Shown here in pieces: positions 11,086 through 51,932 of a stretch of DNA of 64,000 nucleotides (positions are counted from its first letter, which is position 1; each line of letters opens with the position of its first letter). Source of the stretch: an uncultured Acidobacteriota bacterium (GTDB lineage Bacteria > Acidobacteriota > Vicinamibacteria > Vicinamibacterales > Fen-181); NCBI GenBank assembly GCA_963701315.1, contig OY969603.1, positions 2,896,394-2,960,393 on the forward strand, written 5' to 3'. The translations under genes and the position numbers were made by a program. Below the pieces are notes generated by a model. The model did no database searches. It was not told the origin of the DNA and saw only the letters and a program-made list of their open reading frames with translations.

Positions 11086-11222
11086 GGGCGGCGGGCCGCG
11101 ACTCGCGGGCTCGCCTGGAAACGACCGGTCTCCGGTCCACACGCGCGCGTCCTTCTGGTCCCAGGTGTTTTCCGGGGCGAGGCTCTCGGGCCGCCGCGCT
11201 GACCGGCAGGACACGGTCCCGG

Positions 11223-11605
11223 TCACCGGGACGTTGTGCGCACGGTCATGGCGGACGGGAGCGGATCTCGCCGCTCGCGCGACATCGGGGAGGATGATCT
11301 GCCCTTCCCGTCGCGCGCTCTTGATGACCGCGCTCTTGTCGTCTTCCTCCGACCGGTGCTTGCCACAGCAATCGGTTCGATGCGACCATCGGTGTTGGCC
11401 GCGGCCCGCCAGCGCGCCTCGCCGTCCTGACGGGTGGTCTCCTCGTCGAAACGACCGGCCAGCACCATGATGTCGATGTCGCGCCACTCGTCGGCGCTGC
11501 CCCGACCGTACGAGCCGAACAGCCCGCCCGCGCGGCGAGTCCGAACTCGCTCTGGAGGGTTCGGAGGCACCGCTTGACCGAGGCGACTACTCGCTCATCA
11601 GCCAC
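11223..11605 (-). pseudogene. MNT-type nucleotidyltransferase (minimal NTase, TA-associated), frame-broken at least twice
   Basis: GTG start MADERVVASVKRCLRTLQSEFGLAA. The core LFGSYGRGSADEWRDIDIMVL is in a second frame and EDDKSAVIKSARREGQIIL in a third. Confidence 0.6.
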
Positions 11606-11705
11606 TGGAACACCTCGCTGGCGTTGGTGATCGGCCCGCGCGCCTGTTCCGCGGTCAGCGTCGGTCCCCGGGGTCTCGGGATACCGGCCGGCCTGGTAGA
11701 AGGCA

Positions 11706-11843
11706 ATCAGGCGGGAGAGGGAACGGTGGTGGCGCGGCCGTCGGGATGGCGGTGCTGGGAATCCCGCTGGCGGACCCCGGAGAAACCTACCCGCTCGAGC
11801 ATCGCAACAACTTCACGAGGCTTGAGAACAGGCGGTTTCGTCA
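11706..11843 (-). pseudogene. HicA-like mRNA interferase toxin, interrupted
   Basis: VTKPPVLKPREVVAMLERVGFSGVRQRDSQHRHPDGRATTVP matches the HicA core (…G.H..H.HPDGR..TVP). A premature stop follows, with plausible continuation in other frames. Confidence 0.45.
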
Positions 11844-11846
11844 CGG

Positions 11847-12053
11847 TCAGGCTACCCGGACCGCCTGAATGCCGACGAATTCCGCTTCGGGTACCTGGCC
11901 ATCTTCGAGCAGTATGGAGACAACGTCACGCAGGTTGGCGTTGAGCTCATCGAGGGTTTCAGCCTGGCTGTGGGCGCCAGGCATTCCAGGCACGTATCCG
12001 ACGTACAGGCCCGCGTTCAAGTCGCGCTCGACGACGGCGGTGAACTGCTTCAT
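11847..12053 (-). CDS. HicB-family antitoxin-like protein (short form)
   Basis: MKQFTAVVERDLNAGLYVGYVPGMPGAHSQAETLDELNANLRDVVSILLED is the typical HicB N-terminal domain. It lies directly upstream of the HicA-like ORF. Confidence 0.7.
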   Translation of the reverse strand: MKQFTAVVERDLNAGLYVGYVPGMPGAHSQAETLDELNANLRDVVSILLEDGQVPEAEFVGIQAVRVA

Positions 12054-12799
12054 GAGCGTAACTCCCGTCCCCGTAACATAGCAGGAAACGCGAAGCCGGC
12101 TCCATCAGGTGAACCGGAGCTGCGTCGTCTGCGCTGCGTTCTGAATCACCCGGCCGCGGTCTGGTTCCCGGGCGCAAGGTGGGCGTAGCGCTTGCAGGGT
12201 CGAGGCGAAGGGGCCGCCTACACTCTCGCGTTACAGGTTACGGACGTGAGGGCGCCATGACTGGGGACGCGTGCGTGGGACCGGGCGAACACGTCGTTGG
12301 TGAAGGCGCCGCCCGTGGCGCCCCGTGCGGCAGATGGCGACCGAGCCGTCCGCGAGAACCAGCGGTCCCCGATGCAGAGCGCCCCCCTGTTCAGCACTTT
12401 GAATCGCTCGTGCCGGGTCCCGGCCCGACACCCCCACGGGGTCGATCCTTTACCCGCCTCGTCTGAGCGGTCGTCAGCGTCATCCCGGACGGAGAACTCG
12501 TCGGCCACCTCGTGATCCTGCTTTGTCGACTGACTGGGTGATGGGCTTGTCGACCGGCTTGTCGTTCAACTTGCTGATCGACCGGCGGGGTCCGGGTGGC
12601 GGAGCGTCGGCGGTGGTCATTCGCTGCGCGGTCGCCCCCAGCATCCCGGCAGCGTTGAGGCAGTGCCGTTGGTGAACGATGCCGGCGCATTGGACGGCCG
12701 ACAACCCGTACCGTCGTGCGATCTGCGCGGAGTTCCCCGCGGAGTTCCCCGTTGCCCGGGCGTGCCCCGGGGGCCATAATCCTCAAACAGGGTGAGGAC

Positions 12800-13569
12800 A
12801 TGCATCTTCGCAGCATGAGCGTGTTTCTTCTGGCGGCTGCCGCGACGCTGGCGGCTGCCGACAATCCCTTTGTCGGCAAATGGAAAGAGAATCTCGCTCA
12901 GGACGACTACGTCGACGCCACCGTCAGCTACGAACAGACACCCCCCGGTGAGATGCAGGTGACCGCAGAGGGTCACTCCTACAAGTTCAGGATGGATGGA
13001 AAGGAATACCCCACCGGCTTCGGCTCCCTCGTCGCTTGGAAACAGGTTGATGAGAGCACATGGGAAACGGTCCGCAAGACCAACGGCATCCTGGACTGGG
13101 TAGCCACGACCAGACTCTCGCCCAATGGCAAGACCCTGATGGTGACTGAGAAGGGGAAGCGGTCGGACGGCGAACCCTTTGAGGACAACGAACCTACCAG
13201 CGCGTCGCCGGTGGGCCTGGGCTCGCCGGGAAGTGGAAGCTGACCCAGTGGAGATTCAGTTCCGCCTTTGTGATGGAGATTGCCCCCTACGAGGGTGAGG
13301 GCATCACCTGGAGACTTCCCGGGAACGCCACCGTGAACGCCAAGTTTGACGGCATAGATTACACCGTGACCGGCCCGAGCACGCCCGCCGGCTCCACGGT
13401 GGCGCTGAAAAGGACCGGCCCGCGATCCTTCGACGAGGTCCTGAAGATCAAGGGTAAGGTCGTGTACACGGGCACCGTCACGGCTTCTGCTGACGGCAAG
13501 ACTCTGACTGAGGTCGTGACACCTTCTGGCGCCAACGAGAAGACGAAGACCGTGTACGACCGCCAGTAA
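12800..13569 (+). CDS. secreted lipocalin-like domain protein, apparent 1-nt frame break near 13190-13195
   Basis: Signal peptide MHLRSMSVFLLAAAATLAAA, then NPFVGKWKEN. A second FVG/GKWK-type repeat (LAGKWKLTQ) and the C-terminal half are in the -1 frame (track ORF 13270..13569). Confidence 0.6.
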
Positions 13570-13639
13570 TCGACAGCCCAAGGCCGCTGCCGCCGCCCGC
13601 GCCCCGTGGTCCGGACGCGGACCACGGTCACGCCCACGT

Positions 13640-14035
13640 CGCTCAGCGAGCGCGTCATGCGGCGAGGCGAGAGGCGGGCGCCGAGGGCTAACCGCGCGAA
13701 GCTGACCAGCTCGTCCGCCAGGAAGAAGGCCACTGGTTTCGACCGCATCACGCGCCCCCGCTCGGCATGGAGCGTGAGCTGGCCGGGCGGGATCGCGTGT
13801 TTGGCGATCGTCTCGGCGATGAAGGTCTCCGCCAATTCAGCGCCTTCGCGATGCGCGATCATCCACCCCACGACGTACCGGCTGAAGACGTCCAGGATCA
13901 CGTAGAGATAGAAGTAGGTCCACTTGGCCGGGCCGAGCAGCTTGGTGATGTCCCAGGACCACAGCTGGTTCGGCGCGGTGGCCAGTAACTCGGGTTTCTG
14001 GTACGCCGGATGGACCAGTTGATCGCGCCGCTCGC
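13640..14035 (-). pseudogene. IS3/IS481-type transposase (rve integrase core) fragment
   Basis: Translates to ...PNQLWSWDITKLLGPAKWTYFYLYVILDVFSRYVVGWMIAHRE...LTLHAERG, the DDE/rve core start. Both ends of the gene are missing and no IRs are present. Confidence 0.7.
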
Positions 14036-15695: not shown

Positions 15696-15845
15696 TTACT
15701 TGGGTGGCCGTTGCTGTCTCTGGTGCGCCTGGGCGTCGCGGCGGCGGTAGCTCTCGCCGTCGATCGCGACGATCTCCGCGTGGTGCGTGAGCCGATCGAT
15801 GAGCGCGACGGCACAGCCGGCGTTGGGAAAGACGCTGTCCCAGTT
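15696..15845 (-). pseudogene. IS21-family IstB helper ATPase, C-terminal fragment only
   Basis: ...[33 protein letters not shown] matches the IstB C-terminus (AxLDRLxHHxxxxxxxGxSYR). Everything upstream is replaced by the antisense of the next gene. Confidence 0.6.
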
Positions 15846-16875
15846 GGTGGCGCGGGCCATCCACCGCGCCTCGGCGCGCGCCCGGCGGGCCTTGATCAAG
15901 GTCAACTGTGCGGCACTTGCGGAAGGGCTCGTCGCCTCGGAGCTGTTCGGTCACGAGAGAGGGGCCTTCACCGGCGCGACAGAAAGGCGCCGGGGGCGGT
16001 TCGAGCTCGCTGACGGTGGAACGATCCTTCTCGACGAGGTCGACGACCTGCCCCACCCCGTGCAGGTGTCCTTGCTGCGCGTCCTTCAGGAAGGCGAGTT
16101 CGAGCGTGTGGGCGGGAGCCAGACCCTCAGGACCGACGCTCGAGTGGTGGCGGCGACCAACCGAAACATCGAGGAAGCGGTGCGCGAGGGGAAGCGTCGG
16201 GAGGACCTCTTCTTTCGACTCAACGTGTTTCCTATCCACTTGCCGCCCCTGCGCGACCGAGTCGACGACATTCCTCTCATTGCCGAGTATTACGCGCACT
16301 TTCACGGACGCAAGATGGGGAAAGCCATCCAGCGGATCGCGCCTGAAGCCATGGCCATGCTTGTACAGTACCCGTGGCCAGGCAACATCCGAGAGCTCCA
16401 GAATGTCGTGGAACGGGCGATCATACTCGCGCGAGGCCACGTCCTCGACGTTTCCGATCTCGAGATCCCGGGCCTCCGCTCCAGCGGGCCCAGGTTGACG
16501 AGACCTCCCGGCGGACCGAACGCGGAGCGTCAGCGGATCGAGGAAGCCCTTTCCGCCAGCCGGGGCAGGGTCTCGGGCCCCGAAGGAGCCGCCGAGGCGC
16601 TCGGGATCCCACCGAGCACGCTCGAATCGCGCATCCACCGCCTAGGGACCCGGCAGGAACTAACGGTCGCCTCAACCAAACTGGTCGCGGGTTCTACACC
16701 GCGACGAGCGTTGGACCTGGCGCCAGAAGGCGGGGCATGCCCGCGGCCGCGTAGACCTTCGGTTCGTCCAGCGTCCCGTGGGCGAGGAACTCGACGACTC
16801 GCATCGAGCTGGTCGCTTCAGGCCGCCGGACGGCGAGACGAGCCGGACGGCCATCGCATCGCTCGGACAGGGTGA
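15787..16875 (+). pseudogene. sigma-54-dependent transcriptional activator, N-terminally truncated and C-terminally fused to foreign sequence
   Basis: Homology starts inside the AAA+ domain ([10 protein letters not shown]...VNCAAL, GAFTGA, ILLDEV, RVVAATN). Walker A and the receiver domain are missing. A Fis-type HTH ([20 protein letters not shown]) is present, and the ORF then reads on into a permease-tail duplicate. Confidence 0.75.
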
Positions 16876-16915
16876 GGGCGCGAACGCCCATCGCCGGCTA
16901 TTCGGGGCCAGCGCT
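16822..16915 (+). repeat. duplicate of the 3' end plus about 40 bp downstream of the APC permease gene (partner at 37342-37430)
   Basis: About 90 bp at roughly 80-85 percent identity by eye, including GGCGCGAACGCCCATCGCC(G/C)GCTATTCGG. The encoded tails [17 protein letters not shown] and AAGRRGEAGGDRIARIG* are alike. Confidence 0.65.
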
Positions 16916-17054
16916 GTGTTGACACAGAACTGACACAGACGAGGAGGCATCAGGCGGCACATGCGGGTACATGGTAGGCAGCGAATCGGCGATTTTCCTT
17001 GGATAAGCGCCTCTTTGTACCCACTGGTACCCACCCGTCCAGCGGGTGCTTCCA

Positions 17055-17191
17055 ACTCAAAATTCCGTGTCCGCAAGGACGTGTGGGTTCGATTCCGTCC
17101 TCCGGCACCATATAAACACCAGCTGAACAAGTAGTTACGGCTGATACCTGTGGCCAGCCATGTACCTGCCCGCGTGCATGTCTGACACGGC
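17055..17191 (+). repeat. attR-like partial tRNA-Leu (3' 56 nt from the anticodon loop) plus flank; direct repeat of 3610-3746
   Basis: ACTCAAAATTCCGTGTCCGCAAGGACGTGTGGGTTCGATTCCGTCCTCCGGCACCA followed by TATAAACACCAGCTGAACAAGT. The 5' half of the tRNA is absent. Confidence 0.8.
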
Positions 17192-17318
17192 AAGACTGGC
17201 GGGCGACGCCATCCACCCCCTAAGCCCCGTTGTCCGGTGAACGCCGGCTGGTATGGCGGCTTCGACTTCAGCTGTTTCTGTACCGGCGCTGACGAGGCGT
17301 GTCTTGTGTCAGCGCAGG

Positions 17319-17342
17319 ATAGCATGATAGCATGCTGGCATG
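17319..17342 (+). promoter_or_regulatory. candidate antitoxin operator: tandem ATAGCATG x2 containing palindrome AGCATGCT, abutting the start codon
   Basis: The sequence GATAGCATGATAGCATGCTGGCATG ends in the ATG of the AbrB-like gene. No separate SD is visible. Confidence 0.35.
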
Positions 17343-17660
17343 AAGCAGACGGCAGCGGCGGTTGACGATCGGGACGATCGGATCGAGATCAAGGTGGTGG
17401 GCAAGAGTGGCCAGATTTCGTTGGGAAAACGCTATGCGGGCAAGACGCTTCGCCTCGAGCGTCGGCAAGACGGGACGGTCGTGCTGACGGCCGTGGCGAT
17501 GGTGCCAGAAAGCCAGCTCTGGACGCTCCAGGAACCGCACCGTTCCCGAATCGAGCGGGCCCTTGCCTGGGCAGCTCAGACAGCAGCCGCGGAAACGGAC
17601 CTCGACGATCTCGTGAAGCCTCGCACCGCGAGAGCCGGACGCAAACGTGCCCGCGTCTGA
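17340..17660 (+). CDS. AbrB/MazE/SpoVT-family antitoxin-like DNA-binding protein
   Basis: ...IEIKVVGKSGQISLGKRYAGKTLRLERRQDGTVVL is a looped-hinge-helix (SpoVT/AbrB) motif. It overlaps the downstream gene by 14 nt. Confidence 0.7.
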   Translation: MKQTAAAVDDRDDRIEIKVVGKSGQISLGKRYAGKTLRLERRQDGTVVLTAVAMVPESQLWTLQEPHRSRIERALAWAAQTAAAETDLDDLVKPRTARAGRKRARV

Positions 17661-17964
17661 GAACCGGCTCCGCCTCGATCTCAACAGTCCGGAGTTTCAG
17701 GACGTCTTCTGTCGTCTGGAACCCGACGATCTGAAGCAGGTCGTGAGCGCGCTCCGTCGCCTGCGCGAGCTGGATTGGAACGGCCTATACCGACATCCGG
17801 GATTCCGGTGGGAAGCGATCGAGCATCTGAAGGCCGGTGGCGGTGGGAAGGTCTACTCGCTCCGTCTCAGTCAGCGCATTCGTGCTGTCGGAGTCCGGGA
17901 TGGAGATCTTCTCCGACTCATTTCCCTCCACCCGGAGCACGATTCCACGTACGAACGTCCGTAA
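17647..17964 (+). CDS. RelE/ParE/HigB-superfamily toxin-like protein
   Basis: C-terminal ...HLKAGGGGKVYSLRLSQRIRAVGVRDGDLLRLISLHPEHDSTY fits the RelE-fold pattern (YS.R...yR..f......i.......H..Y). The gene overlap is typical of a TA pair. Confidence 0.55.
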   Translation: MPASENRLRLDLNSPEFQDVFCRLEPDDLKQVVSALRRLRELDWNGLYRHPGFRWEAIEHLKAGGGGKVYSLRLSQRIRAVGVRDGDLLRLISLHPEHDSTYERP

Positions 17965-18480
17965 GCGGACCGGCGCGAGAACGAAGCTGAGTCCGAGGCA
18001 ACAAGGAGCCAGTGATTTCTTCGTTCACCCCCCAATCGGCCTCAACAGCCAGCCGCAAGCAGCAAGAACGTCACCGTGCGTCGAGCACAACACGATGCGC
18101 CGCGTGCCGTCCGGGGCACGTGCCAAGCGCAGAGGGACGCCGCCAACTGCGAGCCACCACCGCCGCCGGGCGCCGACCGCGTCCCGCCGATCAAGACGAG
18201 AGGTTCAGGCCTGCGAGAACCACAACCCGCGGGGGCTCATGATCCGGGCAGCCGCCGTCGGCTACAGGCTGTGGTGCGGCCGTTGTTATCCCGTCTTCCG
18301 GAGTTTCTTCCCGTACAATCCGCCTAATCGTGTCCGCGTCCACCGGTCTCGCGATCGGCCGAGGTATTTGAGGTGGACCCCAAAGTCTAGACAAATATCG
18401 GGGCCTCTGAAGTTAAGATCTTCTCCCCTGTAACAGGCGCGGAGGCCTCGTCAGAGGCCGACGCGCCCCCCCGTGAACCG

Positions 18481-19287
18481 CTACGCGGCCTTCGCCCCGG
18501 CGTATACCGCCCACGGCGTTCGGTAGCCGAGGGACTGGTGAGGCCGGCGGTCGTTGTAGAACTGAAAGTACCGGGCCAGCTGCCGACGCGCCTCGGGCAC
18601 CGTGCCGTAGTCCTTCAGATAGATCTCTTCGTACTTCACGGAGCGCCAGAGGCGTTCGACGAACACGTTGTCCAGCGCCCGCCCGCGGCCGTCCATGCTC
18701 ACCCGCGCCCCGGCGGCTTCCACGCGGTCCGTGAACGCCGTCGCCGTGAACTGGGCGCCCTGGTCCGTGTTGACGATCTCGGGGCGGCTTCGGCCCAGGG
18801 CAGCCTCGAGCGCGTCGACGCAGAACTGGCCATCGACGGTCACCGACAGCTCCCACGCCAAGACGTCGCGGCTGAACCAGTCCAGGATCGCGACGAGGAA
18901 CACGAAACCGTGGCGCAAGCGCACATCCGTGATGTCGGTGCTCCACACCTGGTCGACCCGCGTGATCGGGACGTCGCGCAACAGATACGGATACACCTTG
19001 TGCCCCGGATGCGGTTCACTCAGGCGCGGTGTCGGGCCGACCGCCTCCAACCCCATTTCCCGCATCAGGCGCTGGACGTGCTTCCGATTCACGGCGTGCC
19101 CCACGCGATCCTGCAAGGCCACCTGCATCCGCCGCGAGCCGTAAAACGGCGTCGCGGTGTACTGCTCGTCGAGCAGGCGCATCACGTCCAGGTCCGCCTC
19201 GCTGACCACCGCCGGCCGGTAATAGAACGAGGACCGCGGCAGCTCCAACAGGGCACACTGCTGCGCGACGCTCAGCCTCGGGTGCAT
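18481..19287 (-). CDS. IS3-family transposase OrfB (DDE/rve integrase core)
   Basis: ...VWSTDITDVRLRHGFVFLVAILDWFSRDVLAWE...NTDQGAQFT...DNVFVERLWRSVKYEEIYL carries the D, D and E motifs. Its frame is open upstream to 19338, overlapping orfA. Confidence 0.9.
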   Translation of the reverse strand: MHPRLSVAQQCALLELPRSSFYYRPAVVSEADLDVMRLLDEQYTATPFYGSRRMQVALQDRVGHAVNRKHVQRLMREMGLEAVGPTPRLSEPHPGHKVYPYLLRDVPITRVDQVWSTDITDVRLRHGFVFLVAILDWFSRDVLAWELSVTVDGQFCVDALEAALGRSRPEIVNTDQGAQFTATAFTDRVEAAGARVSMDGRGRALDNVFVERLWRSVKYEEIYLKDYGTVPEARRQLARYFQFYNDRRPHQSLGYRTPWAVYAGAKAA

Positions 19288-19309
19288 CGGGTCGACGACG
19301 GCGCGTCGG

Positions 19310-19600
19310 TCAGCGGTCGACCAGGTCGTGTTTTTTCTTCAACCAGTCCAGCTCCATCTTGAGCTGGCCAATTTCCTGACAGAGCGCCGCCTTGAGCGTC
19401 TCGTGGTCGTCGACCTCCGTGTCGCGGCGGGTGGCGAAGACCTCGGGCAGGGCCGCCACCGCCTGCTTCTTCCACTTGGCGACCTGAATCGGATGCACCT
19501 CGAAGGCCGACGCCAACTCGCTCAACGTCCGGTCGCCGCGCAACGCCGCCACGGCCACTTTCGCCTTGAACTCCGCACTCTGCAATCGTCGTTTGGCCAT
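19310..19600 (-). CDS. IS3-family transposase OrfA (HTH)
   Basis: MAKRRLQSAEFKAKVAVAALRGDRTLSELASAFEVHPIQVAKWKKQ... is the classic IS3/IS911 OrfA. An A6 run lies near its 3' end (plus-strand T6 at 19331-19336). Confidence 0.9.
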   Translation of the reverse strand: MAKRRLQSAEFKAKVAVAALRGDRTLSELASAFEVHPIQVAKWKKQAVAALPEVFATRRDTEVDDHETLKAALCQEIGQLKMELDWLKKKHDLVDR

Positions 19601-23360: not shown

Positions 23361-24047
23361 TCAACGGCTGGTCGTCTCCGACTTCCGGAGTTCGACGGCG
23401 TACTGCCAGAGGAGGTGCCCCGAGTAATCCACGTGCTGTCGAACAACCTGCTCGGCACGATCGCCGTCGCGAGCGCCGATGGCATCGACTAAGGCGCGAT
23501 GCTCCTGCTGCGAGCGCGGAAGGTACGACGGGAGAAAGCGAACTGTTCGAAGCCGGCAGGTCTTCCCGAGCAACCCCATGGCCATCGAACGCAGCGACGA
23601 ATATGGGCAGGCGCGGAAGGTCGCCGCGTGAAACTGGTAGTTGAGTTCCGGATAGCCCAGCTCATCGGCTGCTGCGGCGGCATCCATGCGGTCAAGGAGT
23701 TCTCGGAGCTCGGTGAGGGCATCGGACCCAATATGGATGGCCGAGATCCGGACCGCCACTCCCTCCACGGCTGCCCGGATGATGGACGTCTCAAGGATCT
23801 CTTCGGGAGACAGGTCGGGAACGACCGCGCCTATGTGAGCCCTTGCCTGAAGCCAGCCCTCGCCGATGAGGCGGTCAACTGCGCCGCGCACGGGAAGCTT
23901 GCTGACGCCAAGTTGACTGGCGACCTGGTCAACGACGATGCGGGTGCCAGGTCCGTACCGACCGGCGAGAATCTCCTTGCGGAGCACGTCGTAGACCAGG
24001 TCAGTCTTGGTCCGGTAGCCGGCCAACGACCTAGGTGAGAGACCCAT
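23361..24047 (-). CDS. GntR-family transcriptional regulator (FadR/FCD subfamily)
   Basis: GGAGAGGAG RBS. Winged-HTH LVYDVLRKEILAGRYGPGTRIVVDQVASQLGVSKLPVRGAVDRLIGEGWL followed by an all-helical FCD-like domain. Confidence 0.85.
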   Translation of the reverse strand: MGLSPRSLAGYRTKTDLVYDVLRKEILAGRYGPGTRIVVDQVASQLGVSKLPVRGAVDRLIGEGWLQARAHIGAVVPDLSPEEILETSIIRAAVEGVAVRISAIHIGSDALTELRELLDRMDAAAAADELGYPELNYQFHAATFRACPYSSLRSMAMGLLGKTCRLRTVRFLPSYLPRSQQEHRALVDAIGARDGDRAEQVVRQHVDYSGHLLWQYAVELRKSETTSR

Positions 24048-24487
24048 TCGTGAACTCCTCTCCAAGCCAATCGTATCAGATGTCCGAGATCGCGCTGGAC
24101 GAATCGGCCGCCAACGTCGACCGCTGATTCGGTGACCCACTGCGCGGCTTCGGGCGGCGGCGGCGTGTCCGTCGGCCTTCGACGCAACCCCTGCGCTCGC
24201 AGCGTAGTGCCAGGCAGTGCGGCGCGGCGAATCGCCCGCGCGCTATGCGCTGCATGGGCAACATCGAGTGCGGCGTGTCGCGCCCCACCTTCCCGACGGG
24301 TTCGCAACTTGAGGTCCAGAGGCCTTCAACAACAAGGGGGTACGCACAATCTGGGCCCGCACGAGCCGCGGACGCGCGCGCACGACGAGCGTCGACGATA
24401 GGCCTGTGGCGAGCGTGGAGGTGGCGGCGACTCAGGTCTCTTGGTGAGTGCACCGGACCGCGGCGTCCGCCCAGCCTGACCATTGAG

Positions 24488-24579
24488 GAGACGTCCAACC
24501 GCGCGTGGAACGGCCCGTATAGCAGCACCGCCACTTCGCCCCATTCGCCCGAGACGTCCAACCGCGCGTGGAACGGCCC
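24488..24579 (+). repeat. two perfect 29-bp direct repeats separated by a 34-bp spacer (CRISPR-like geometry, only 2 units)
   Basis: GAGACGTCCAACCGCGCGTGGAACGGCCC occurs at 24488-24516 and 24551-24579. No third unit and no cas genes are in the window. Confidence 0.6.
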
Positions 24580-24753
24580 CTCGATTGCGCTTCAGCAGAA
24601 GATGAGCCTCAAGCTTAAACCGAATCCGATATACGACTTGCATTCAGCGCCGGATCGCGTTCACCTCCAGTCTTGCTTAATGAAAACTCATCCATGTGTG
24701 AACGAGGTCGGGGCACCGGACAACGGCCCGGGACAACGGTAGGAAGAACGGGA

Positions 24754-24782
24754 TTGACAGGAAGGCTGGGCCGTTCTATATT
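24754..24782 (+). promoter_or_regulatory. near-consensus sigma-70 promoter (TTGACA-17 nt-TATATT)
   Basis: TTGACA at 24754-24759, a 17-nt spacer, and TATATT at 24777-24782. It points toward the BNR/sortilin gene about 200 nt downstream. Confidence 0.6.
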
Positions 24783-24790
24783 CCACCGCT

Positions 24791-24820
24791 ATCAGATATC
24801 GGATACGATATCCGGATTGT
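24791..24820 (+). promoter_or_regulatory. candidate operator: tandem GATATC(C)GGAT motifs just downstream of the -10
   Basis: GATATCGGAT at 24795-24804 and GATATCCGGAT at 24807-24817. An inverted copy ATCCGATAT lies at 24624-24632. Assignment to the GntR regulator is inference. Confidence 0.4.
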
Positions 24821-24985
24821 GACGCTCCACAATGAGGGGCGGACAGGCTCCGAAGGCTGGAAACGACGCCCGGGCGCGACATGGCGCAGTGCGGAATCGG
24901 GGATCTGGCCGACCTTCAGGGCCAGCCCTTTCAGCCTCGGACGCCGGTCAGGTCGGCGCTGGTCTCTGAGAACTCGAGGCCACCA

Positions 24986-27900
24986 ATGATCTCAAACAGC
25001 GGAATCCGTACGGTGCTTGGCGTCATGTTCGCGATCGGCCTGGTCGCCGCCGTCGGTGGCGGAAGCGCGCCTCAGCCGCCACCCGACCAGGGGATCTCGG
25101 CAACGGTCTTTGGCAACTTGCGCTACCGGCAGATCGGCCCACCCGGAAACCGCGTGTCTGCCGTTGTGGGCGTTCCCGGCGACCCGAACGTCCTCTACGT
25201 TGGGGCGGCCTCCGGCGGCGTCTGGAAATCGGTGGACGCAGGCACTCACTGGCAGCCGATCTTCGACCAGCAGCCGGCGCAGTCGATCGGGGCGATCGCC
25301 ATCGCGCCGTCGCACGCGAACACGGTCTGGGTTGGCACCGGCGAGACTTTCATCCGCAGCAACATCTCGATCGGCAACGGTATCTACAAGTCCACCGACG
25401 GAGGTACGACATGGCGCCATATGGGGCTCGACAAGACCGGTCGGATCGGTCGCATTGTCGTCGACCCCCGCGACGCGAACATCGTCTTCGCGGCAGCTTT
25501 GGGCCACTGCTACGGTCCGCAGCAAGAGCGCGGTGTGTATCGCAGCCGGGACGGCGGCAGAACCTGGGAGCGGGTTCTCTTCGTCGACGAGAACACTGGG
25601 GCCTCTGAGATTGCCATGGATCCGAGAAGTCCGGACGTCCTCTTCGCAGGAATGTGGCAGGTCGACATCAAGACGTGGGGGCGGACCAGCGGAGGACCAG
25701 GCAGCGGCCTCTACGTGTCGCGCGATGGCGGCACGACCTGGACCCGCTTGAACGGCCGAGGCCTGCCCGATCCCCCGCTCGGCAAGGTCGCGGTCGCTAT
25801 TGCCCCGAGCGATAGCTCACGAGTCTACGCCCTGATCGAGACAGGGCAGCGCGGTTCTCTCTGGCGATCCGACAACGGTGGCCTCGTGTGGCGGCTCGTC
25901 AATCCGAGCCGTTTGCTGAACGAGCGCCCGCACTACTACTCGCGGATGGCCGTGTCGCCGATCGACGAGAACGAGCTCTACTTTCTCTCCAATAGCGTAA
26001 GCGTCAGCTATGACGGCGGCGAGACAGCAGAACAGCTGCGCTGGGGCGGCGACGACCACGACATGTGGATCGACTCGACCAACGCCGACCGGATGATGAT
26101 CGGCGACGACGGCGGCGCGTTGATCTCAACGACGCACGGGAAGGAGTGGGCGCGGGTCCTGCTTCCAATCGCCCAGATGTACCACGTGGCCGTCGACAAC
26201 CAGACACCGTACTTCGTCTACGGCAACAGGCAGGACGGCCAGTCGTACCGTGGCCCGAGCAACAGCCTCGACGCCCCCATCACGCCGACGGCGGGGGCGG
26301 CTATCCCACGCGGCAGTCGGCTCAGCTCGAGCGAGTGGATCAACGTGGCAGGCTGCGAGTCGGGTTTCGCGGTGCCGGACCCCGTGGACAACAACATCGT
26401 CTGGGGAAGCTGCTTCAATGGCGGCCTCGACGTCTTCGATCTCCGGACGCGTCACATGCGGTCCGTGCGTGTCTGGCCGCGCTCTGCGCGAGGTGCTGCG
26501 GCCAAGGACATGAGGTACCGCTTCAACTGGACGTTCCCGATCGCCATCTCCCCGCACGATCACAACGTCGTTTACGTCGGCAGCCAGCATGTCCACAAGA
26601 CGACGGACGGCGGCCAGAGCTGGACCGTGATCAGTCCGGACTTGAGCACCAACGATCCGAGCAAGTTGGGCGACTCCGGTGGCCTGACCGTCGACAATCT
26701 CGGCGTCGAGTACGGCGAGGTCGTCTTCGCCATTGCCGAATCGCCGGTCCAGAAGGGACTCATCTGGGCGGGAACCAACGACGGACAGGTACAGGTGACA
26801 CGCGATGGCGGCGGTCACTGGACCAATGTGACGGGCAGCATTCCGGAACTTCCGGCTTGGGGAACGATCAGCAACGTCGAACCGTCGCGCTTCGATGCCG
26901 GCACCGCCTACGTCACGGTCGACCTCCACCAGGAAAACAACCGCGACCCGTACGTCTACAAGACGTCGGACTTCGGGAAGACGTGGAAATCCATCAGCTC
27001 CAACCTGCCGCGTGACGTCTTCAGCTATGCCCACTGTGTTCGTGAGGATCCGGTTCGCAAGGGTCTGCTCTACCTGGGCACCGAGAACGGGCTGTACGTC
27101 TCGCTCGACGATGGTGCCCGCTGGGTGCCGCTGCAGCTCAATTTGCCGCACGCGCCGGTGTACTGGCTGGCGATCCAGGAGCACTTCTCCGATCTCGTCG
27201 TCGCCACATACGGCCGGGGCTTCTGGATCCTCGACGACATCACACCCCTACGCCAGCTCTCGCCAGAGGTGCTGGCCAAAGACACGTACCTGTTTGGTCC
27301 GCGCGCGACGTACCGCTTTCAACGCGTGCGCGAAAAGCAGACCGCTCCGAATGACCAGAGCACCGGCGAGAACCCACCCGATGGGGCGCCCATCGCCTAT
27401 TACTTGAAGTCCGCGCAGCCTGACGGTGTGACGGTGCAGATCGTCGACGCAGCCGGTCAGGTCGTTCGTACGCTGCGCGGTCCGGGCCGGCAGGGAATGA
27501 ACCGGATCTGGTGGGACCTCCGGCACGAAGCGCCGCCGCGACCCAAGCTGCGCGTCCGACCACCTGGGAATCCAACCGTCTGGGACGAGAAGCGCTTCGC
27601 CAGCTACGCGATGCTCGGCTGGCGGCCGCTCGTTGTCCGGGTGATCAACGGCGGGCTCGACGGGCCGCAGGCGGTCCCGGGGACGTACACCGTCCGCCTG
27701 AAGGTGGGCGCAAACGACGTGCGCGAGCCCCTCCTGATCAAGAAGGACACGCACAGCGCCGGCACTGAAGACGACATCCGGATGCAGGTCCGCACGGTGC
27801 TCGACATCCAAGCGGACTTCCGGACGGTTGTGCACGCGATCGATCGGATTGAGTGGCTGCGCAAGCAGGTGCAGGACCTGCGCGAGATGGCCTCCGAGAC

Positions 27901-28237
27901 CCAGCGGCTCGCGCCGGTAGGCGCCGCCGCGAACGCAGTGGACGAGCGGCTGGCCAAGGTCGAGGCCCTCTTCTTCCAGCCGGTTCTCGCCGAAGCGGAC
28001 GACAAGTCGTTCCGCGCCCTGCCGAAGTTGTTTACCAACTTCGCTGAACTCGCCGGGGACGTGATGTCGGCAGACTTCAAGCCCACGAACCAGCAGCTCC
28101 AGGTACACCAGGAGCTCAAGGGCGAATTGTCGGCCGCCGAGAACCAGCTGAAGCAGGCACTCGAGCGTGACCTTCCGGCGTTCAACAAGGTGCTCGCTGA
28201 GCATGGATTGGCCGGCATCAACTCGGTCGCGCAATAG
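24986..28237 (+). CDS. secreted BNR/Asp-box repeat, sortilin/VPS10-like beta-propeller protein
   Basis: Signal peptide MISNSGIRTVLGVMFAIGLVAAVGG. Repeated S-x-D-x-G-x-T-W boxes (SVDAGTHW, STDGGTTW, SRDGGRTW, SRDGGTTW, TTDGGQSW, TRDGGGHW, TSDFGKTW). About 1080 aa. An in-frame ATG at 24881 is less likely. Confidence 0.85.
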   Translation: MISNSGIRTVLGVMFAIGLVAAVGGGSAPQPPPDQGISATVFGNLRYRQIGPPGNRVSAVVGVPGDPNVLYVGAASGGVWKSVDAGTHWQPIFDQQPAQSIGAIAIAPSHANTVWVGTGETFIRSNISIGNGIYKSTDGGTTWRHMGLDKTGRIGRIVVDPRDANIVFAAALGHCYGPQQERGVYRSRDGGRTWERVLFVDENTGASEIAMDPRSPDVLFAGMWQVDIKTWGRTSGGPGSGLYVSRDGGTTWTRLNGRGLPDPPLGKVAVAIAPSDSSRVYALIETGQRGSLWRSDNGGLVWRLVNPSRLLNERPHYYSRMAVSPIDENELYFLSNSVSVSYDGGETAEQLRWGGDDHDMWIDSTNADRMMIGDDGGALISTTHGKEWARVLLPIAQMYHVAVDNQTPYFVYGNRQDGQSYRGPSNSLDAPITPTAGAAIPRGSRLSSSEWINVAGCESGFAVPDPVDNNIVWGSCFNGGLDVFDLRTRHMRSVRVWPRSARGAAAKDMRYRFNWTFPIAISPHDHNVVYVGSQHVHKTTDGGQSWTVISPDLSTNDPSKLGDSGGLTVDNLGVEYGEVVFAIAESPVQKGLIWAGTNDGQVQVTRDGGGHWTNVTGSIPELPAWGTISNVEPSRFDAGTAYVTVDLHQENNRDPYVYKTSDFGKTWKSISSNLPRDVFSYAHCVREDPVRKGLLYLGTENGLYVSLDDGARWVPLQLNLPHAPVYWLAIQEHFSDLVVATYGRGFWILDDITPLRQLSPEVLAKDTYLFGPRATYRFQRVREKQTAPNDQSTGENPPDGAPIAYYLKSAQPDGVTVQIVDAAGQVVRTLRGPGRQGMNRIWWDLRHEAPPRPKLRVRPPGNPTVWDEKRFASYAMLGWRPLVVRVINGGLDGPQAVPGTYTVRLKVGANDVREPLLIKKDTHSAGTEDDIRMQVRTVLDIQADFRTVVHAIDRIEWLRKQVQDLREMASETQRLAPVGAAANAVDERLAKVEALFFQPVLAEADDKSFRALPKLFTNFAELAGDVMSADFKPTNQQLQVHQELKGELSAAENQLKQALERDLPAFNKVLAEHGLAGINSVAQ

Positions 28238-28291
28238 GGACGCACAGCACTCATGCAGGCGGGCGCCCAGGAACACACCGGGAGGTGAACC

Positions 28292-29888
28292 GTGTCACGC
28301 AACGTCGTAGTGGTCATGCTCGACACGCTACAGTTCAACTACCTCGGTTGCTACGGCAACGCGTGGATCCACACGCCTCATATCGATCGGTTTTCCAAGC
28401 AGGGCGTGCTCTTCGAGAACGCGTACACCGAGGGACTTCCTACCATCCCGTGCCGGCGCGCCATGTTCACCGGTCGCTACACGCTGCCCGTGAAAGGTTG
28501 GTCGCAGCTCGACATCGACGACACGACCATTGCCGACCTGTGCTGGGGCCACCCTATCGACACCGCGCTGGTGGGCGACGCCGGACCCCTTCGCCTTCCG
28601 AAGTTCGGCTACTCACGCGGCTTCGATAAGGTCCATTTTATCCACGGTCACGAAACCGACCACCAGGTACCTACGCCCAGGACGAGCTTGCCGGCCTCCG
28701 GGCGGAAGACTACTTCGAGGACCACGTCATGGAGAGCGCGGACACGATCCTCGGCGAGACGGTCGTCCGTCCGCTCATGAACCAGGTGGAATGCCACCTG
28801 AAGGAGCGCCAGGTACCTGGAAGTCGGACGACGACCAGCACGCCGCGCAGGTGATGAAGGCCGCTTCGCGCTACCTGGAGAGCGCCGACCGCAACAAGTC
28901 GTTCTTCCTGTGGGTGGACTGCTTCGATCCCCACGAGCCCTGGGACCCGCCCTCGGTCTACGACCGAACCCTGCGATGTCCGTACGACCCGGACTACCAG
29001 GGCAAGGACATGTTCCTGCCGATCCAGGGGCACGTGCGGGGCCTTTACACGGAGCCAGAGCTGCACCACATCCGGATGCTCTATGCCGAAAAGGTCACGA
29101 TGGTTGACAAGTGGTTCGGCTGGTTGATGGACAGGATCCGGGCGCTCGGCCTGGAAGAGAACACGCTGGTGCTACTCGTGTCGGATCATGGCTGCCCCAT
29201 GGGCAACGGTGAGCACGGCCACGGGATCATGCGCAAATGCCGTCCGTGGCCGTACGAGGAACTCGCGCACATTCCGATGATTGTTCGCGGTCCCGGCCTG
29301 CCGCACGACGCGCGCGTGTCTGGTTTCGTGCAGTCCTGCGACGTCGCGCCGACCGTCGTCGACTGGCTCGGGATCGGCGTTCATCCCTCGATGCAGGGCA
29401 AGAGCCTGCTGCCTCTCGCGAAGGGCGAGGTCGAACGGCTGAGGGACTTCGCCCTCGCGGGGTACTTCCGCTACTCCTGGTCGCTCATCACGCCGGACTG
29501 GTCCTTCATCCACTGGCTCAAGGACGAGGAGAAGACCGTCGCCGATTCGCGGTTCGGCATGTACGGCCGCGAACTAGCGCAATCCACGGCGCACCTGCTC
29601 CAAACGAGGAGGCTGAATGCGGTGGAGGATCGAGACACGGCCTTCTACACGAGAGCGTACGAGGAATACAAGAAAGCCGCAACCCTCGATGGCGAGGACC
29701 AGTGGACGTGCACGGCGGCCAGTTCCGGAGAGGTGCCGGCACGCGACGAGTTGTACCACCGGGTAGCGGATCCGTTCCAGCTGAGGAACGTCGCAGCGGA
29801 GAAGTCGGACGTCGCCCGTGACCTGTTCGAGCGGCTTCGCCTCTTCATGGCTGAGCTGCGGGCGTCGGACAGCGGTGCTCTGTTGTGA
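28292..29888 (+). CDS. cytoplasmic sulfatase-family (alkaline-phosphatase superfamily) enzyme with Thr at the FGly position; two apparent -1 frame breaks
   Basis: No signal peptide. Motifs VVVMLDTLQ..., LPTIPCRRAMFTGRY (T-x-P-x-R-x4-TG), FFLWVDCFDPHEPW and LLVSDHG. Coding signal moves frame 2 to 1 at 28666 and frame 1 to 0 at 28812. Confidence 0.8.
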
Positions 29889-43364: not shown

Positions 43365-43943
43365 TCAGCAGGCCTGCAGGAGTCCGTGGATCTTGAGCAC
43401 GGTGTGACCGAGGCACACAAGCGCCCATTCTCGCTGGACCTTCTCGAGTCCGCGCAAGACGAATTGGCGGAAACCGCGTCCATGCTTCGTCTGACCGAAG
43501 ACCGGTTCCACGATCGCCTTGCGCCACCGATAGACGTCATGGCCGCGCTTCGTCTGCAGCTTCCGCCTCATGCGATCGGTCAGCGTCGCCGCCTTCGGCA
43601 AGGGCCCGCGGGGGCATCGCACCGGCTGCTGATCGTGGGGCTGCCGACCGGTGGCCACGTAGCCGTCGATCCCCGCACTGGCCAGGTACGCCAAGTTCGC
43701 GTCGGAGCAGTAGCCGCTGTCCGCCAAGACCTCGGCCGGCCGCTCGCCAAATTGCGTCTCGATCACCTCGACCATCGGCTGCAGTTGTTGCTTGTCGTTC
43801 GGCTCCTGCGTCACCGCCTGCCCGACGATCAGTTGGCTGACGGGCTCCACGGCGATTTGCGCGTTGTACGCGTGCACAAACCCGTCGGGCCCCGTCATGA
43901 TGCGCGACTCGGGGTCGGTGAAGTTGTACTGCGCCTTCGGATT
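43365..43943 (-). pseudogene. IS1182-family transposase, C-terminal part (DDE domain)
   Basis: …PKAQYNFTDPESRIMTGPDGFVHAYNAQIAVE…ADSGYCS…KAIVEPVFGQTKHGRGFRQFVLRGLEKVQREWALVC… is the typical IS1182/IS5-like C-terminus. Confidence 0.85.
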
Positions 43944-44121
43944 ATGGAGAGCTCTCCATAACGAAGATTATGGTGAGTGCCGCGTTATGCTGCGCGCGGG
44001 CGATGCTCGACGGAATCACGGCCATGTTAGAGGCCGTCGTCCGTTGATCTTCTTTCCATAATCCGGTCTCGGGTGCATTGTCGTTCCTCCACCAGCAGAA
44101 AGGAGGAGCGATGTTTTCGAC

Positions 44122-45360
44122 GTGGTATCCGGCGACGCGCGCGGCCGCTATCGACGCTCCCCACACAAAGCCAGGATCGATCGGATCGGCAGCAGGCTTC
44201 GCCAGCAGCAGTATCTCGATGACGCGATCCGGCATCATCTCCACGAGTGGCTGCGATTCACTCAGTACCTGGATCAACGCGGCGTGACTCGCCCGACGAG
44301 TATCGCTGATGAGTGCGTGCGCCGGTACGTGGCGCGGCGCACGCGAGGTACGAGCGGGAGCCACGGCCGGTTTGTCCGCGCATCCGTCCGTCTCTTCATT
44401 GAGGCGGACGATGACGGTCACTGCCGGCGCCGCGTCGGGACCGCCTCATGGGTGGCGCCGGGCTGGTTTGGCGAGATCCTGACCCGCTACCTCGACTTCG
44501 TTCAGCGACATCGCGGCCTTGCCCGTCGCACGGTGAGTCAGTATGCGCGCAAGCTATCGGTGTTTGCCCAGTACCTGGAGCAGGCGAAGTGCACGCGGCT
44601 CGAGGCGATCGCGCCCCGGCACGTGCGTGCATTCTACGAAAACGCCGACGGCGACCGGCCACGTCGCTCCTACAGCTCGAGCCTCCGTGCGTTCTTCCGG
44701 TGGGCGGCGACACAAGACTTGGTCTCCGCGGTGCTGAGTGATGCGGTTCCCCGTCCGCGACACTATCGGTTAGCGACGCTCCCGGACGTGCTCACCGACG
44801 AGGACGTCGAGCGCATTGTCGCGACCGTGGACCGATCCACGCCGGTGGGGCGACGCGATTGTGCGGTCTTGCTCCTGGCCGCACGGTACGGGCTGCGGCC
44901 GTGCGATATTCGTCAGCTGACGCTTGATCACCTCGATTGGCGCCAGGCATGTATTGAGATCCGGCAGGCCAAAACGGGCCGGCCGCTGGTATTGCCGCTG
45001 CTTCCGGATGTCGCCGATGCCCTCAGTACGTACATCCGGGACGGCCGTCCGCCCTCTCTCAGTCGTGCCATCTTCATCAGGCATCGAGCGCCCTTTGAGC
45101 CGTTTGTCGCTGAAAACAATCTCTCGACCATCATGCGCGCGGCGCTGCACCGAGCGGGTCTGGCTGATCGACCTGGGCGCCGCGGCCTCTACCTGTTCCG
45201 GCACACTCTCGCCACGCGTCTGCTGGCCGCCGGCCATCCGATAAAGACGATCGCCGACGTCCTGGGGCACGCCTCCACTGACACGACGTACGGCTACGCG
45301 CGGATCGAGCTCTCAAATCTCCGCACGGTCGCCATCGCGGAAGCGGAGGTGGATGCATGA
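44122..45360 (+). CDS. ritA: tyrosine recombinase, first of trio (RitA-like)
   Basis: SAM-like N-domain plus catalytic domain: ...LLAARYGLRPCDIRQLTLDHLDW...IRQAKTGRPLVLPL...FRHTLATRLLAAGHPIKTIADVLGHASTDTTYGYARI (R..H-x-x-R..Y). The start is uncertain. Confidence 0.8.
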   Translation: MVSGDARGRYRRSPHKARIDRIGSRLRQQQYLDDAIRHHLHEWLRFTQYLDQRGVTRPTSIADECVRRYVARRTRGTSGSHGRFVRASVRLFIEADDDGHCRRRVGTASWVAPGWFGEILTRYLDFVQRHRGLARRTVSQYARKLSVFAQYLEQAKCTRLEAIAPRHVRAFYENADGDRPRRSYSSSLRAFFRWAATQDLVSAVLSDAVPRPRHYRLATLPDVLTDEDVERIVATVDRSTPVGRRDCAVLLLAARYGLRPCDIRQLTLDHLDWRQACIEIRQAKTGRPLVLPLLPDVADALSTYIRDGRPPSLSRAIFIRHRAPFEPFVAENNLSTIMRAALHRAGLADRPGRRGLYLFRHTLATRLLAAGHPIKTIADVLGHASTDTTYGYARIELSNLRTVAIAEAEVDA

Positions 45361-46358
45361 CGGCTTCCGCCTACGCCACGACGTTCGGTTCGCCGCTCGC
45401 GTCGCAGCTCGAGCGATTCCTGGCGCTCAAGCGCGCGATGGGCTATCGCTACCGCGATGAATCGCGGTTGCTCCGTGAGTTGGATCATTTCCTCACGGCA
45501 CGCCTGGCGTCGATGTCTGATCCGGTTCTCACACTGGCGGTCGCGCGCGACTATGTCGCCCGTCGCGGGAAGGAATCCGATGCGACCCGCGCCCATCGTC
45601 TCACGATCATCAGAGAAGTCAGCCGATTCCTGCGGCTGGAAGACCCGCGCACGGAGGTTCCAGGGCCGAGATTCCTCGCGATTGCACGGCACACGTTTGT
45701 GCCGCGGGTGCTCAGTCGCGAGGAGGGCCGCCGGTTCCTTCAGGCCTGCGACCACCTATCCCAAGACCCCCGATCGCCGATCCGGCACGTGGTGCTGGGC
45801 ACGGCCCTGCGGCTGTTGTATCTCACCGGGCTGCGCCGCGGCGAGGTCCTCCGGCTCACGCTGGCCGACGTCGATCCGAATGCCGGCGTCTTGCAGATTC
45901 ACCACACCAAGTTTGGCAAGTCGCGCCTGGTTCCGGTCGCTCCAGATCTCGCCCGACGCCTTACAGAATGTCGACGCGTCGTCCAAGCGCGCCTCGGACC
46001 CCGTGATCCGGAGACGCCGTTCTTTCCGCGGTCCACCGGTCGTCGGTACGGACCCTCCGCACTTCGCCGGGCATTTCATCAGACTCTGGATCTCGCAGGA
46101 ATTCCTCGTGTGCGCGGTGGCCGCCGTCTCCGCCTCCACGACCTTCGGCATTCCTGGGCAGTGCTGCGCCTCACGTTGTGGTGTGAGCAGAATGTCGACC
46201 TTGGGGCGAAGCTGCCACTCCTCGCGACGTACCTCGGTCATGTCGACTTGACCAGCTCCCAGCGGTATCTGCAGCTGACGCAAGACCTCGTCGCCGAGGT
46301 GACCCGTCGCCATCAAGCGCGCTTCGGCCATCTCATTTGCGAAGGGAGGGCCTCGTGA
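45357..46358 (+). CDS. ritB: tyrosine recombinase, second of trio (RitB-like)
   Basis: ATGA overlap with ritA. ...LLYLTGLRRGEVLRLTLADVD...HHTKFGKSRLVPV...LHDLRHSWAV...YLGHVDLTSSQRYL. Confidence 0.8.
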   Translation: MTASAYATTFGSPLASQLERFLALKRAMGYRYRDESRLLRELDHFLTARLASMSDPVLTLAVARDYVARRGKESDATRAHRLTIIREVSRFLRLEDPRTEVPGPRFLAIARHTFVPRVLSREEGRRFLQACDHLSQDPRSPIRHVVLGTALRLLYLTGLRRGEVLRLTLADVDPNAGVLQIHHTKFGKSRLVPVAPDLARRLTECRRVVQARLGPRDPETPFFPRSTGRRYGPSALRRAFHQTLDLAGIPRVRGGRRLRLHDLRHSWAVLRLTLWCEQNVDLGAKLPLLATYLGHVDLTSSQRYLQLTQDLVAEVTRRHQARFGHLICEGRAS

Positions 46359-47359
46359 GGCTGCCGATGCTCTCCGCCTTGATCACCGACTTCTTTGTTC
46401 GCCATCTGGCGTCCGAGCGAAATGTCAGCGCTCACACGACGATCGCCTATCGCGATGCCGTGAAACTCTTCCTTCGCTTCGCCTCGATGCGCTGCCACCG
46501 GGAGATCGACGAGCTCACGATCAGCGACCTCAGCGCCGATGCCGTGCTGGAGTTCCTCGCCGACCTTGAGACGCATCGCGGCAATGCCGTGCGGACCCGC
46601 AACGCTCGCCTGGCAGCCCTGCAGACCTTCTTTCGGTACGTCGCGACACGCGAGCCGGTGCTGGCCAGCCACTGCCATCCGATTTTCGCGATTCCAACCA
46701 AGAAGACGAGCCGCCCCGTCCTCGGCTACCTGAGCGAACAGGAGCTGGCGCATCTCCTCGCACAAGTCGACCGCTCCGGTGTCAATGGCGAACGCGACTA
46801 CGTGCTGCTCGCCGTGCTGTACGACACCGGCGCTCGCATTCAAGAGGTCCTCGACCTCGTCCCTCAGGACTTTCACTTCGACGCTCCGGCCTATGTGCGC
46901 GTCCGCGGGAAGGGACGTCGCGAACGACTCTGCCCGCTCCTTCCGCAGACCGCCCGTCTCATCCGACGATTTCTGACCGCGCAGCGGCGGACTCCCGGAG
47001 ACGCACGCCCGTTGCTGCAAAATCGGCGAGGCGCCCGATTGACCCGACACGGTGCGCGGTACTTGCTGCTGAAGCACCTCCATCGCGCCGCCGCTTCGAT
47101 GCCGAGTCTCGCTCGGCCCAAGATCAGCCCGCATACGCTTCGCCACACCAAAGCGATGCACCTGCTACAGTCAGGCGTCCCGCTCATCACCGTCAAAGAC
47201 TTCCTCGGTCACGTCGACCTGACGTCGACCGAGGTGTACGTCCAAGCCGACCTGGAGATGAAACGACAGGCGCTCGCAGGCGCAGGCGGGCCCCATGCGG
47301 TCCCCGGTCGACGCCTGCGCTTGCCGTCAGGCCTCATCGCCTGGCTCGAGTCGCTATAG
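46355..47359 (+). CDS. ritC: tyrosine recombinase, third of trio (RitC-like)
   Basis: GTGA overlap with ritB (an in-frame ATG at 46337 is also possible). ...VLYDTGARIQEVLDL...VRGKGRRERLCPL...PHTLRHTKAMHLLQSGVPLITVKDFLGHVDLTSTEVYV. Confidence 0.8.
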   Translation: MRLPMLSALITDFFVRHLASERNVSAHTTIAYRDAVKLFLRFASMRCHREIDELTISDLSADAVLEFLADLETHRGNAVRTRNARLAALQTFFRYVATREPVLASHCHPIFAIPTKKTSRPVLGYLSEQELAHLLAQVDRSGVNGERDYVLLAVLYDTGARIQEVLDLVPQDFHFDAPAYVRVRGKGRRERLCPLLPQTARLIRRFLTAQRRTPGDARPLLQNRRGARLTRHGARYLLLKHLHRAAASMPSLARPKISPHTLRHTKAMHLLQSGVPLITVKDFLGHVDLTSTEVYVQADLEMKRQALAGAGGPHAVPGRRLRLPSGLIAWLESL

Positions 47360-47457
47360 TCCGATATGGGAAGCCGGCGATCGCCCCTGCCAGCAGATCG
47401 TTCCGGAAGATCACGATCTCCGCCGCAGCTTCCCATAACGCGGCACTCACCATAATT

Positions 47458-48177
47458 CGGATCGGGAACCGCGTCCGATTGCTCGGCCGGGGCGGCCTCG
47501 GCTTTCGCGCGCGCCTCCAAGACCCGCTTCGCTTCGCGGATCCGCGCCAGTCGAGTCTCTCGGCGCTGCAGCTCCGGGGGCAGCTCGTCCCCGCGACGAT
47601 CGCGCCCGTGCGTCGCGTCCTCTTGCGCGTCGGTCGCCTCCGCCTGGGTCAGCAGATGATGGACCTCGGTGGCCAACGTCGCTTCGCGTTCCTGCATCCG
47701 CCCGTAACTCATCGCCTGGTGTTTCGAGGCGTTCGCCTTCACCTTACTGCCGTCGATCGCGACGCGCCCGACGCTGACGGCGCCCGCTTCCCGCGCCATC
47801 TGCAAGACCTGAACGAACAGGCCTTCCAACGCGGCCAGATGGATCTTCCGAAAGTCCGCGATCGTGCGAAAGTCAGGCGTGTTGCCGGCGGCCAACACGC
47901 GAAACGCCACATCGTCCACCAAGCGGCGCGCGATCCTGCGCGACGAGAAGACCCCGGTGCAATAGCCGTACACCAGCACCTTCGTCATCATCGCCGGGTG
48001 ATAGGGCGGCTGGCCCCGATCGTCACGCTCGTAGACCGACGTGATCGCCGACAAATCCAAGACGTCCACCAGGTCGCTCACGAAGAACGCAAGATGATCG
48101 TCGGGCAGCCACTCGCGCAGGCTCGGCGGCAACAACAAGCTCTGTTCGGGCAGATACGTCTTGTACGACTTCGCCAT
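47458..48177 (-). pseudogene. IS1182-family transposase, N-terminal part
   Basis: MAKSYKTYLPEQSLLLPPSLREWLPDDHLAFFVSDLVDVLDLS...GQPPYHPAMMTKVLVYGYCTGVFSSRRIA... is the typical IS1182 N-terminus. The track ORF reads on into the RIT terminal repeat. Confidence 0.85.
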
Positions 48178-51194: not shown

Positions 51195-51483
51195 GGGCCA
51201 CCTCCTTCAAGGCAACACGTGCGACCGCCGGAGACGTCTGAACCGTAGTGGGAATATCGAAGAGTGGTTTCCGTAAGTGCCAGTCCTCTGCCGAGGCGCT
51301 GATCATACGCTGCCTCGAACTCTCGGAGACGCGGCGAGGCTGGCCAGAGTGACCCGACCCGGGCCGCGGCGGACCTCCGGGGACCGGTCGGGTCGCACGT
51401 CAGGCACCCTGGCCAGCGGGGTGAGCCTCGCGCTGGGAGAGGAGGCAGCGCCGCGATTGCCATGCTCGTCCTGAAACGGGTCG

Positions 51484-51861: not shown

Positions 51862-51932
51862 CCGCCACCTGGATGCGATGCCTCAGTCACCTGCCAGCCG
51901 CGACGAGGCGTGTCTGTTCAACGGTGGGAATG

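Follow-up and report, generated by a model that had tools for sequence, protein, structure and literature searches.

The two frame breaks in the sulfatase-family gene described here are probably consensus errors at a misread palindrome and not biology, and the gene itself is probably intact and ordinary, with 530 codons under strong purifying selection. It lies in a 64,000-nucleotide stretch of DNA, here called the window, and the following features were distinguished (L055 is a contig from an independent assembly, described below):

28292–29888, plus strand: sulfatase-family gene of the alkaline-phosphatase superfamily, with two interruptions in the assembly; assigned from Pfam, homologues and neighbours
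28292–28666, plus strand: segment 1, residues 1–125, ending in ...HGHETDHQ; from translation and alignment to 16 homologues
28663–28672, plus strand: site 1, CCAGGTACCT; homologues have CCAGTACT, L055 has CCGGTCCT
28672–28808, plus strand: segment 2, about 46 codons, YAQDEL...CHLKER, between sites 1 and 2; in native orientation and colinear with homologues
28809–28818, plus strand: site 2, CCAGGTACCT within the 12-bp palindrome CCAGGTACCTGG; homologues have CCA(G/A)TACTGG, L055 has CCAGGACCT
28819–29888, plus strand: segment 3, from WKSDDDQH... to the stop, the C-terminal two thirds; from translation and alignment

As assembled, the gene is read in the frame of position 28292 through the CAG codon at 28664–28666, one frame back over 28666–28812, and another frame back from 28812 to the stop at 29888. 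The ORF from 28292 is stopped at 28780, the remaining protein up to 29888 is encoded by another ORF, which is open from 28530, and in the stretch between the sites the third frame is the sole open frame. The original prediction had placed two frame breaks at one and the same decamer within a single sulfatase-like gene, and this description was confirmed. Copies of CCAGGTACCT stand at 28663–28672 and 28809–28818, 146 bp apart, and the frame changes at each. Site 2 lies within the palindrome CCAGGTACCTGG, and for this reason alone the minus strand has a third match at 28811–28820. Dinucleotide-preserving shuffles gave an expectation of 0.03 matches, and at least three matches occurred in 0 of 100 shuffles. 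The sequence facts on the two frame breaks are correct and lie far beyond chance. Also as predicted, the decamer lacks a slippery heptamer, with both sites reading C CAG GTA.

The joined translation of the three segments matched the Pfam Sulfatase profile (PF00884) over residues 3–362, spanning both break sites, with 130.3 bits against a profile cut-off of 25 bits (E 1.2e-37), which places the joined product in this family. It had 1827 homologues, the closest of which (P0001) was 92% identical over 100% of the length, and the best 120 of these 1827 were mostly full-length single ORFs. In a 17-sequence alignment, comprising the window and 16 homologues, segments 1–3 were colinear with the homologues, in keeping with the earlier remark that all three look like genuine sulfatase-family sequence. 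Gene neighbours are also shared with relatives, namely a Sortilin/BNR protein upstream (locus L001) and a thioredoxin and an oxidoreductase downstream (locus L003).

The homologues carry a different sequence at the breaks. The residue at both sites is Tyr or Phe in 16 of the 16 aligned homologues. At the DNA level, about 30 homologous loci from different lineages (those with anchorable flanking motifs, the closest relative included) read CA(G/A)-TA(C/T)-T, or TT(C/T) for Phe, at both sites, and GGTACC is present in none of them. At site 1, CACCAG-GTACC-TACGC in the window stands against CACCAG-TAC-TACGC in the three closest loci; at site 2, CGCCAG-GTACC-TGGAA in the window stands against CG(C/T)CA(G/A)-TAC-TGGAA in those loci. 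Since the homologues have CAG-TAC-T, the window has a 2-nt excess at each site and not one missing G. Where the homologues have AGTACT the window has AGGTACCT, the extra G and C being placed symmetrically.

These comparisons bear on how the gene should be repaired. The earlier proposal was to restore CAG GGT ACC at both sites, and re-reading the G at each does yield an open frame of 532 codons. The repair itself did not hold up: relative to the 16 homologues, the 532-codon protein has a one-residue insertion per site, and the conserved Tyr/Phe is replaced. At site 1 it reads ...DHQ-GT-YAQ... where the homologues have ...DHQ-Y-YAQ..., and at site 2 ...KERQ-GT-WKS... where they have ...KERQ-Y-WKS.... 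When GTACC was instead changed to TAC at both sites, the gene measured 1593 nt, equal to the genes of the two closest homologues (P0001 and P0002), and no other stops or shifts were found in the gene after removal of 2 nt per site. Judged from these alignments, the correct repair is most likely Gln-Tyr at both sites and not Gln-Gly-Thr, and dropping the G and the C would be the parsimonious way to reach it. In the repaired gene, dN/dS relative to L001 was 0.035, 0.08 and 0.10 for segments 1, 2 and 3, respectively (0.079 overall), and 0.094 relative to L003. Neither relaxed constraint nor further lesions, as would mark a decaying pseudogene, were observed in it.

A second source of evidence was an exact-protein look-up, which returned three Logan contigs, all from run ERR11594402; the same look-up with six further window proteins gave no match. 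The contigs correspond to the window as follows:

23800–29630: Logan contig L055, ERR11594402
13928–15673: Logan contig L056, ERR11594402
43962–47462: Logan contig L057, ERR11594402

The contigs appear to come from the same organism as the window. Across their combined 11,075 nt, the sole differences from the window are at sites 1 and 2, where L055 reads CCGGTCCT and CCAGGACCT, respectively. Between the two sites L055 equals the window, as do the 812 nt 3' of site 2, and the GGTACC at 26514, inside L055, is the same in both assemblies. As the assemblies differ only at the two sites, the underlying reads therefore disagree at exactly those positions. The two alternative versions are related: GGTCCT at site 1 of L055 is the exact reverse complement of AGGACC at site 2, and AGGTCCT overlaid on AGGACCT, with both central letters kept, gives AGGTACCT, which is the window version and the expected outcome of a pile-up consensus over forward and reverse reads. 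The mirror images suggest that each DNA strand is read differently at the palindrome. Each strand read 5' to 3' would thus give the same distortion, and a strand-agnostic k-mer assembler would pick one strand. The original prediction was to be abandoned if GG were confirmed at both sites and homologues were similarly split; we found that L055 lacks the decamer at both sites and that the homologues are unsplit.

The best explanation of these observations is a reading artefact, to which we give somewhat better than even credence. Both sites would truly read AGTACT, the ancestral palindrome, within YAGTACTR, and encode Gln-Tyr (CAG-TAC-T). Single-molecule reads would be strand-dependent here, probably owing to a DNA modification at the site, so that one strand would come out approximately as (A)GGTCCT and the other as its mirror AGGACC(T). 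A long-read assembler that kept both central letters would then arrive at AGGTACCT, with two additional bases per site, and the k-mer assembler used on ERR11594402 would take one strand's version at each site. In this scheme we infer the long-read platform, the modification and its motif, ERR11594402 as the source of the window's reads, and AGTACT as the true sequence.

A partial precedent has been described for nanopore R10.4.1 data, in which strand-specific basecalling errors at modified bacterial motifs reach assemblies (PMC11610603; related: 10.1101/2022.05.20.492776). As in our case, those errors occur at short specific motifs, differ between forward and reverse reads, and survive into the consensus while the remaining sequence is unaffected. 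In contrast, the published modification-induced errors are mainly single substitutions, C to T and G to A (PMC11610603), whereas here an insertion plus a substitution per strand and a 2-nt excess have to be accounted for, and the platform, modification and motif are ones that we infer and do not observe.

Several findings stand against a reading artefact. It requires the combination of insertion and substitution on each strand, and if AGGTACCT were true, an A lost from GGTACC would explain L055 more simply. A Pfam scan of 29 window proteins found no methyltransferase or restriction gene within the 64-kb window of the 7.04-Mb contig. In addition, 47 GATC sites and the GGTACC at 26514, all inside L055, show no disagreement between the assemblies.

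The distribution of related motifs constrains any modification that might be involved. Unaltered AGTACT is present at four sites in the window (3323, 10156, 40242 and 52948), two of which are CCAGTACT on the minus strand. GGTACC occurs at twelve further positions, of which three (6159, 11890 and 53225) are GGGTACC. Given the intact AGTACT and the other GGTACC sites, simple 6- or 8-mer rules fail. A universal conversion of AGTACT to AGGTACCT was rejected on account of the four AGTACT sites that stay intact, and a universal undercall of GGGTACC as GGTACC on account of the three intact GGGTACC sites. The motif Y-AGTACT-R, itself palindromic, fits the ancestral form of both affected sites and none of the four unaffected AGTACT sites, and it does not occur in the window as assembled. 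This rule was fitted after the fact to the same six sites and is only suggestive. No Logan contig was found over the four intact AGTACT sites.

AGTACT is a ScaI-type and GGTACC a KpnI-type restriction-modification motif, and no enzyme is known for the 8-bp motif YAGTACTR. Both hexamers are palindromes around GTAC, and both recur at the sites at issue, AGTACT in the ancestral form and GGTACC within the assembled one. The sites at issue differ in that the four AGTACT and twelve GGTACC elsewhere are normal, a plain 6-bp motif does not fit, and the window holds no restriction-modification gene.

The main alternative is a correctly assembled window, in which case two identical symmetric 2-bp insertions into AGTACT would have inactivated the gene very recently and left a pseudogene with a truncated product of 162 residues; we consider this unlikely while still giving it some weight. 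The other assembly may in that case have lost the A (or T) of GGTACC, e.g. through N6-adenine methylation. All versions in both assemblies retain GG and CC, the window version is the same at both sites, and the change from AGGTACCT to AGGTCCT amounts to deleting one base on each strand, so that the read error would be simpler than if AGTACT is true. Weighing against real insertions, an unprecedented symmetric mutation adding G and C would have to have happened twice, plus a read problem at the same two positions, and neither fill-in of staggered cuts, target-site duplication nor slippage yields AGGTACCT from AGTACT. Moreover, the two insertions leave a net gain of 4 nt instead of cancelling out, dN/dS is 0.08 in a gene that is otherwise free of lesions, and the GGTACC at 26514 in L055 is identical in both assemblies. 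An artefact at AGTACT was weighted above a real AGGTACCT because one cause suffices for it, as against an unexplained double mutation at hard-to-read spots.

If AGGTACCT is truly genomic, a site-specific process would have added G and C symmetrically to two copies of YAGTACTR within 146 bp, and the resulting scars would be hard to sequence as well; this we regard as distinctly improbable. Such a process might involve a dimeric enzyme that nicks or modifies the site, with repair synthesis afterwards, or a bulky hypermodification installed only in part at the 8-bp palindrome. Either would amount to a targeted mechanism of mutation or modification not described before.

A genuine heterogeneity among cells or molecules at both palindromes, produced by a site-targeted nuclease with error-prone repair or by bulky partial hypermodification, would account for agreement over 11 kb with disagreement at exactly these sites and in three versions, each assembly having drawn on different real variants. 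We hold it to be a slim prospect. Mirror-image variants are predicted by strand-specific reading and not by independent mutations, and every variant is out of frame or replaces conserved residues while the 11 kb are otherwise invariant.

That a GGG lost one G per site through homopolymer undercalling, the true sequence being CAG-GGT-ACC, would deliver the open 532-codon frame, but we consider it highly improbable. It brings in an extra residue per site, turning the conserved Tyr/Phe into Gly-Thr twice, the extra codon occurs in no homologue (about 30 loci), L055 lacks the extra G, and GGGTACC at 6159, 11890 and 53225 is called with three Gs.

Programmed recoding at the CCAGGTACCT sites, whether by a -1 frameshift, a +2 hop or bypass, would give a full-length enzyme and would fit the use of one decamer at both breaks and the good conservation of the three segments; we give it next to no credence, and programmed frameshifting at both sites is very unlikely. 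An X XXY YYZ heptamer is absent, as C CAG GTA at both sites contains no homopolymeric triplet, the 80 nt downstream fold no better than shuffles (z -0.59 at site 1 and -0.43 at site 2), and the decamer is absent from L055, the independent assembly. No shared shift was seen in the 16 aligned homologues, the about 30 loci have in-frame CAR-TAY/TTY, and neither junction had a match in JGI metagenome contigs. The likeness to bacterial -1 programmed ribosomal frameshifting, as in dnaX and IS3-family transposases, is that the gene continues in the -1 frame past a defined short sequence. Unlike in those systems, slippery heptamer, stimulatory structure and conservation are lacking, two consecutive shifts would be required, and the site is not reproduced between assemblies.

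Three further ideas were discarded: the 146-bp repeat unit as an inserted element, since its deletion leaves the wrong frame and the segment is colinear with homologues; an inversion between the palindromes, as both assemblies have the native orientation; and a staggered-cut fill-in or transposon footprint, as AGGTACCT cannot be reached from AGTACT by duplicating any dinucleotide in tandem.

Frameshifts in two homologous loci were rejected as parallels, being unrelated to palindromes. A Desulfarculaceae MAG (L048; OY776512.1, 388976–402160) has a second sulfatase copy that is N-terminally truncated, with a 1-nt deletion near codon 145, and is a genuine decayed paralogue. In the MAG MFD09964.bin.2.242 (L046; CAVOLI010000004.1), the only frameshift lies near codon 495 and resembles an ordinary indel error.

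The sulfatase protein is unusually conserved: genes from a Bilophila wadsworthia isolate and from MAGs of Desulfovibrio, Desulfarculaceae and SAR324 are 79–82% identical to it. In gene content the window looks Acidobacteria-like, with TonB receptors with a CarboxypepD_reg domain and a MacB/FtsX duplicated permease. Set against this content, the conservation in distant lineages suggests, from sequence comparison, that the sulfatase gene may have spread horizontally. The conserved Cys of the protein sits in ...PCRRAM..., which presumably does not fit the classical C-x-P-x-R formylglycine motif.

Mobile elements are also visible in the window. The stretch 43962–47462, which equals L057, holds three consecutive tyrosine-recombinase genes (412, 333 and 334 aa) with Phage_integrase domains in a 3.5-kb unit, whose ends are roughly 16-bp imperfect inverted repeats (GATTATGGTGAGTGC... 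and ...GCACTCACCATAAT). As L057 starts and ends exactly at these repeats, a multi-copy 'recombinase-in-trio'-like mobile element is suggested. By eye, the unit apparently lies inside a minus-strand transposase gene, with the N-terminal part at 47209–48177 and the C-terminal part at 43365–43898. The regions 13359–13901, 15799–16875 and 18481–19585 are rich in mobile-element debris, including an rve integrase fragment; a sigma-54 activator there lacks its N-terminal part, with the profile match starting from position 36 of 168. An apparent IS3-family transposase pair was recognized by eye on the minus strand, a 268-aa ORF with a 91-aa ORF just upstream. If this assignment is correct, the pair would be a usual location for a genuine -1 programmed frameshift.

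Elsewhere in the window, codon usage gave a weak signal or none in 11100–13300, 16900–18400 and 51200–54000, where long ORFs are lacking too, and the rest is densely coded. The one further frameshift suspected in the window, at 5300–5450 from codon usage and a GC3 frame plot, was dismissed, as Pfam indicated a later-starting amidohydrolase and a separate small ORF. The 64 kb contain 426 GATC sites, compared with ~200 predicted from base composition, an excess of about twofold. GATC was considered as a cause of Logan contig ends, both ends of L055 falling in GATC, and rejected, as 47 internal GATC sites are clean.

If the breaks are reading artefacts, the interrupted gene has no biological importance of its own. 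They would serve as a warning that, in MAGs built from long reads, paired breaks that share one palindrome can be mistaken for recoding or pseudogenisation, and that naive repair then leads to a wrong protein. They would also hint indirectly that this organism may modify the 8-bp palindrome YAGTACTR. If instead the insertions are real, they would be evidence for a symmetric, site-specific mutational process.
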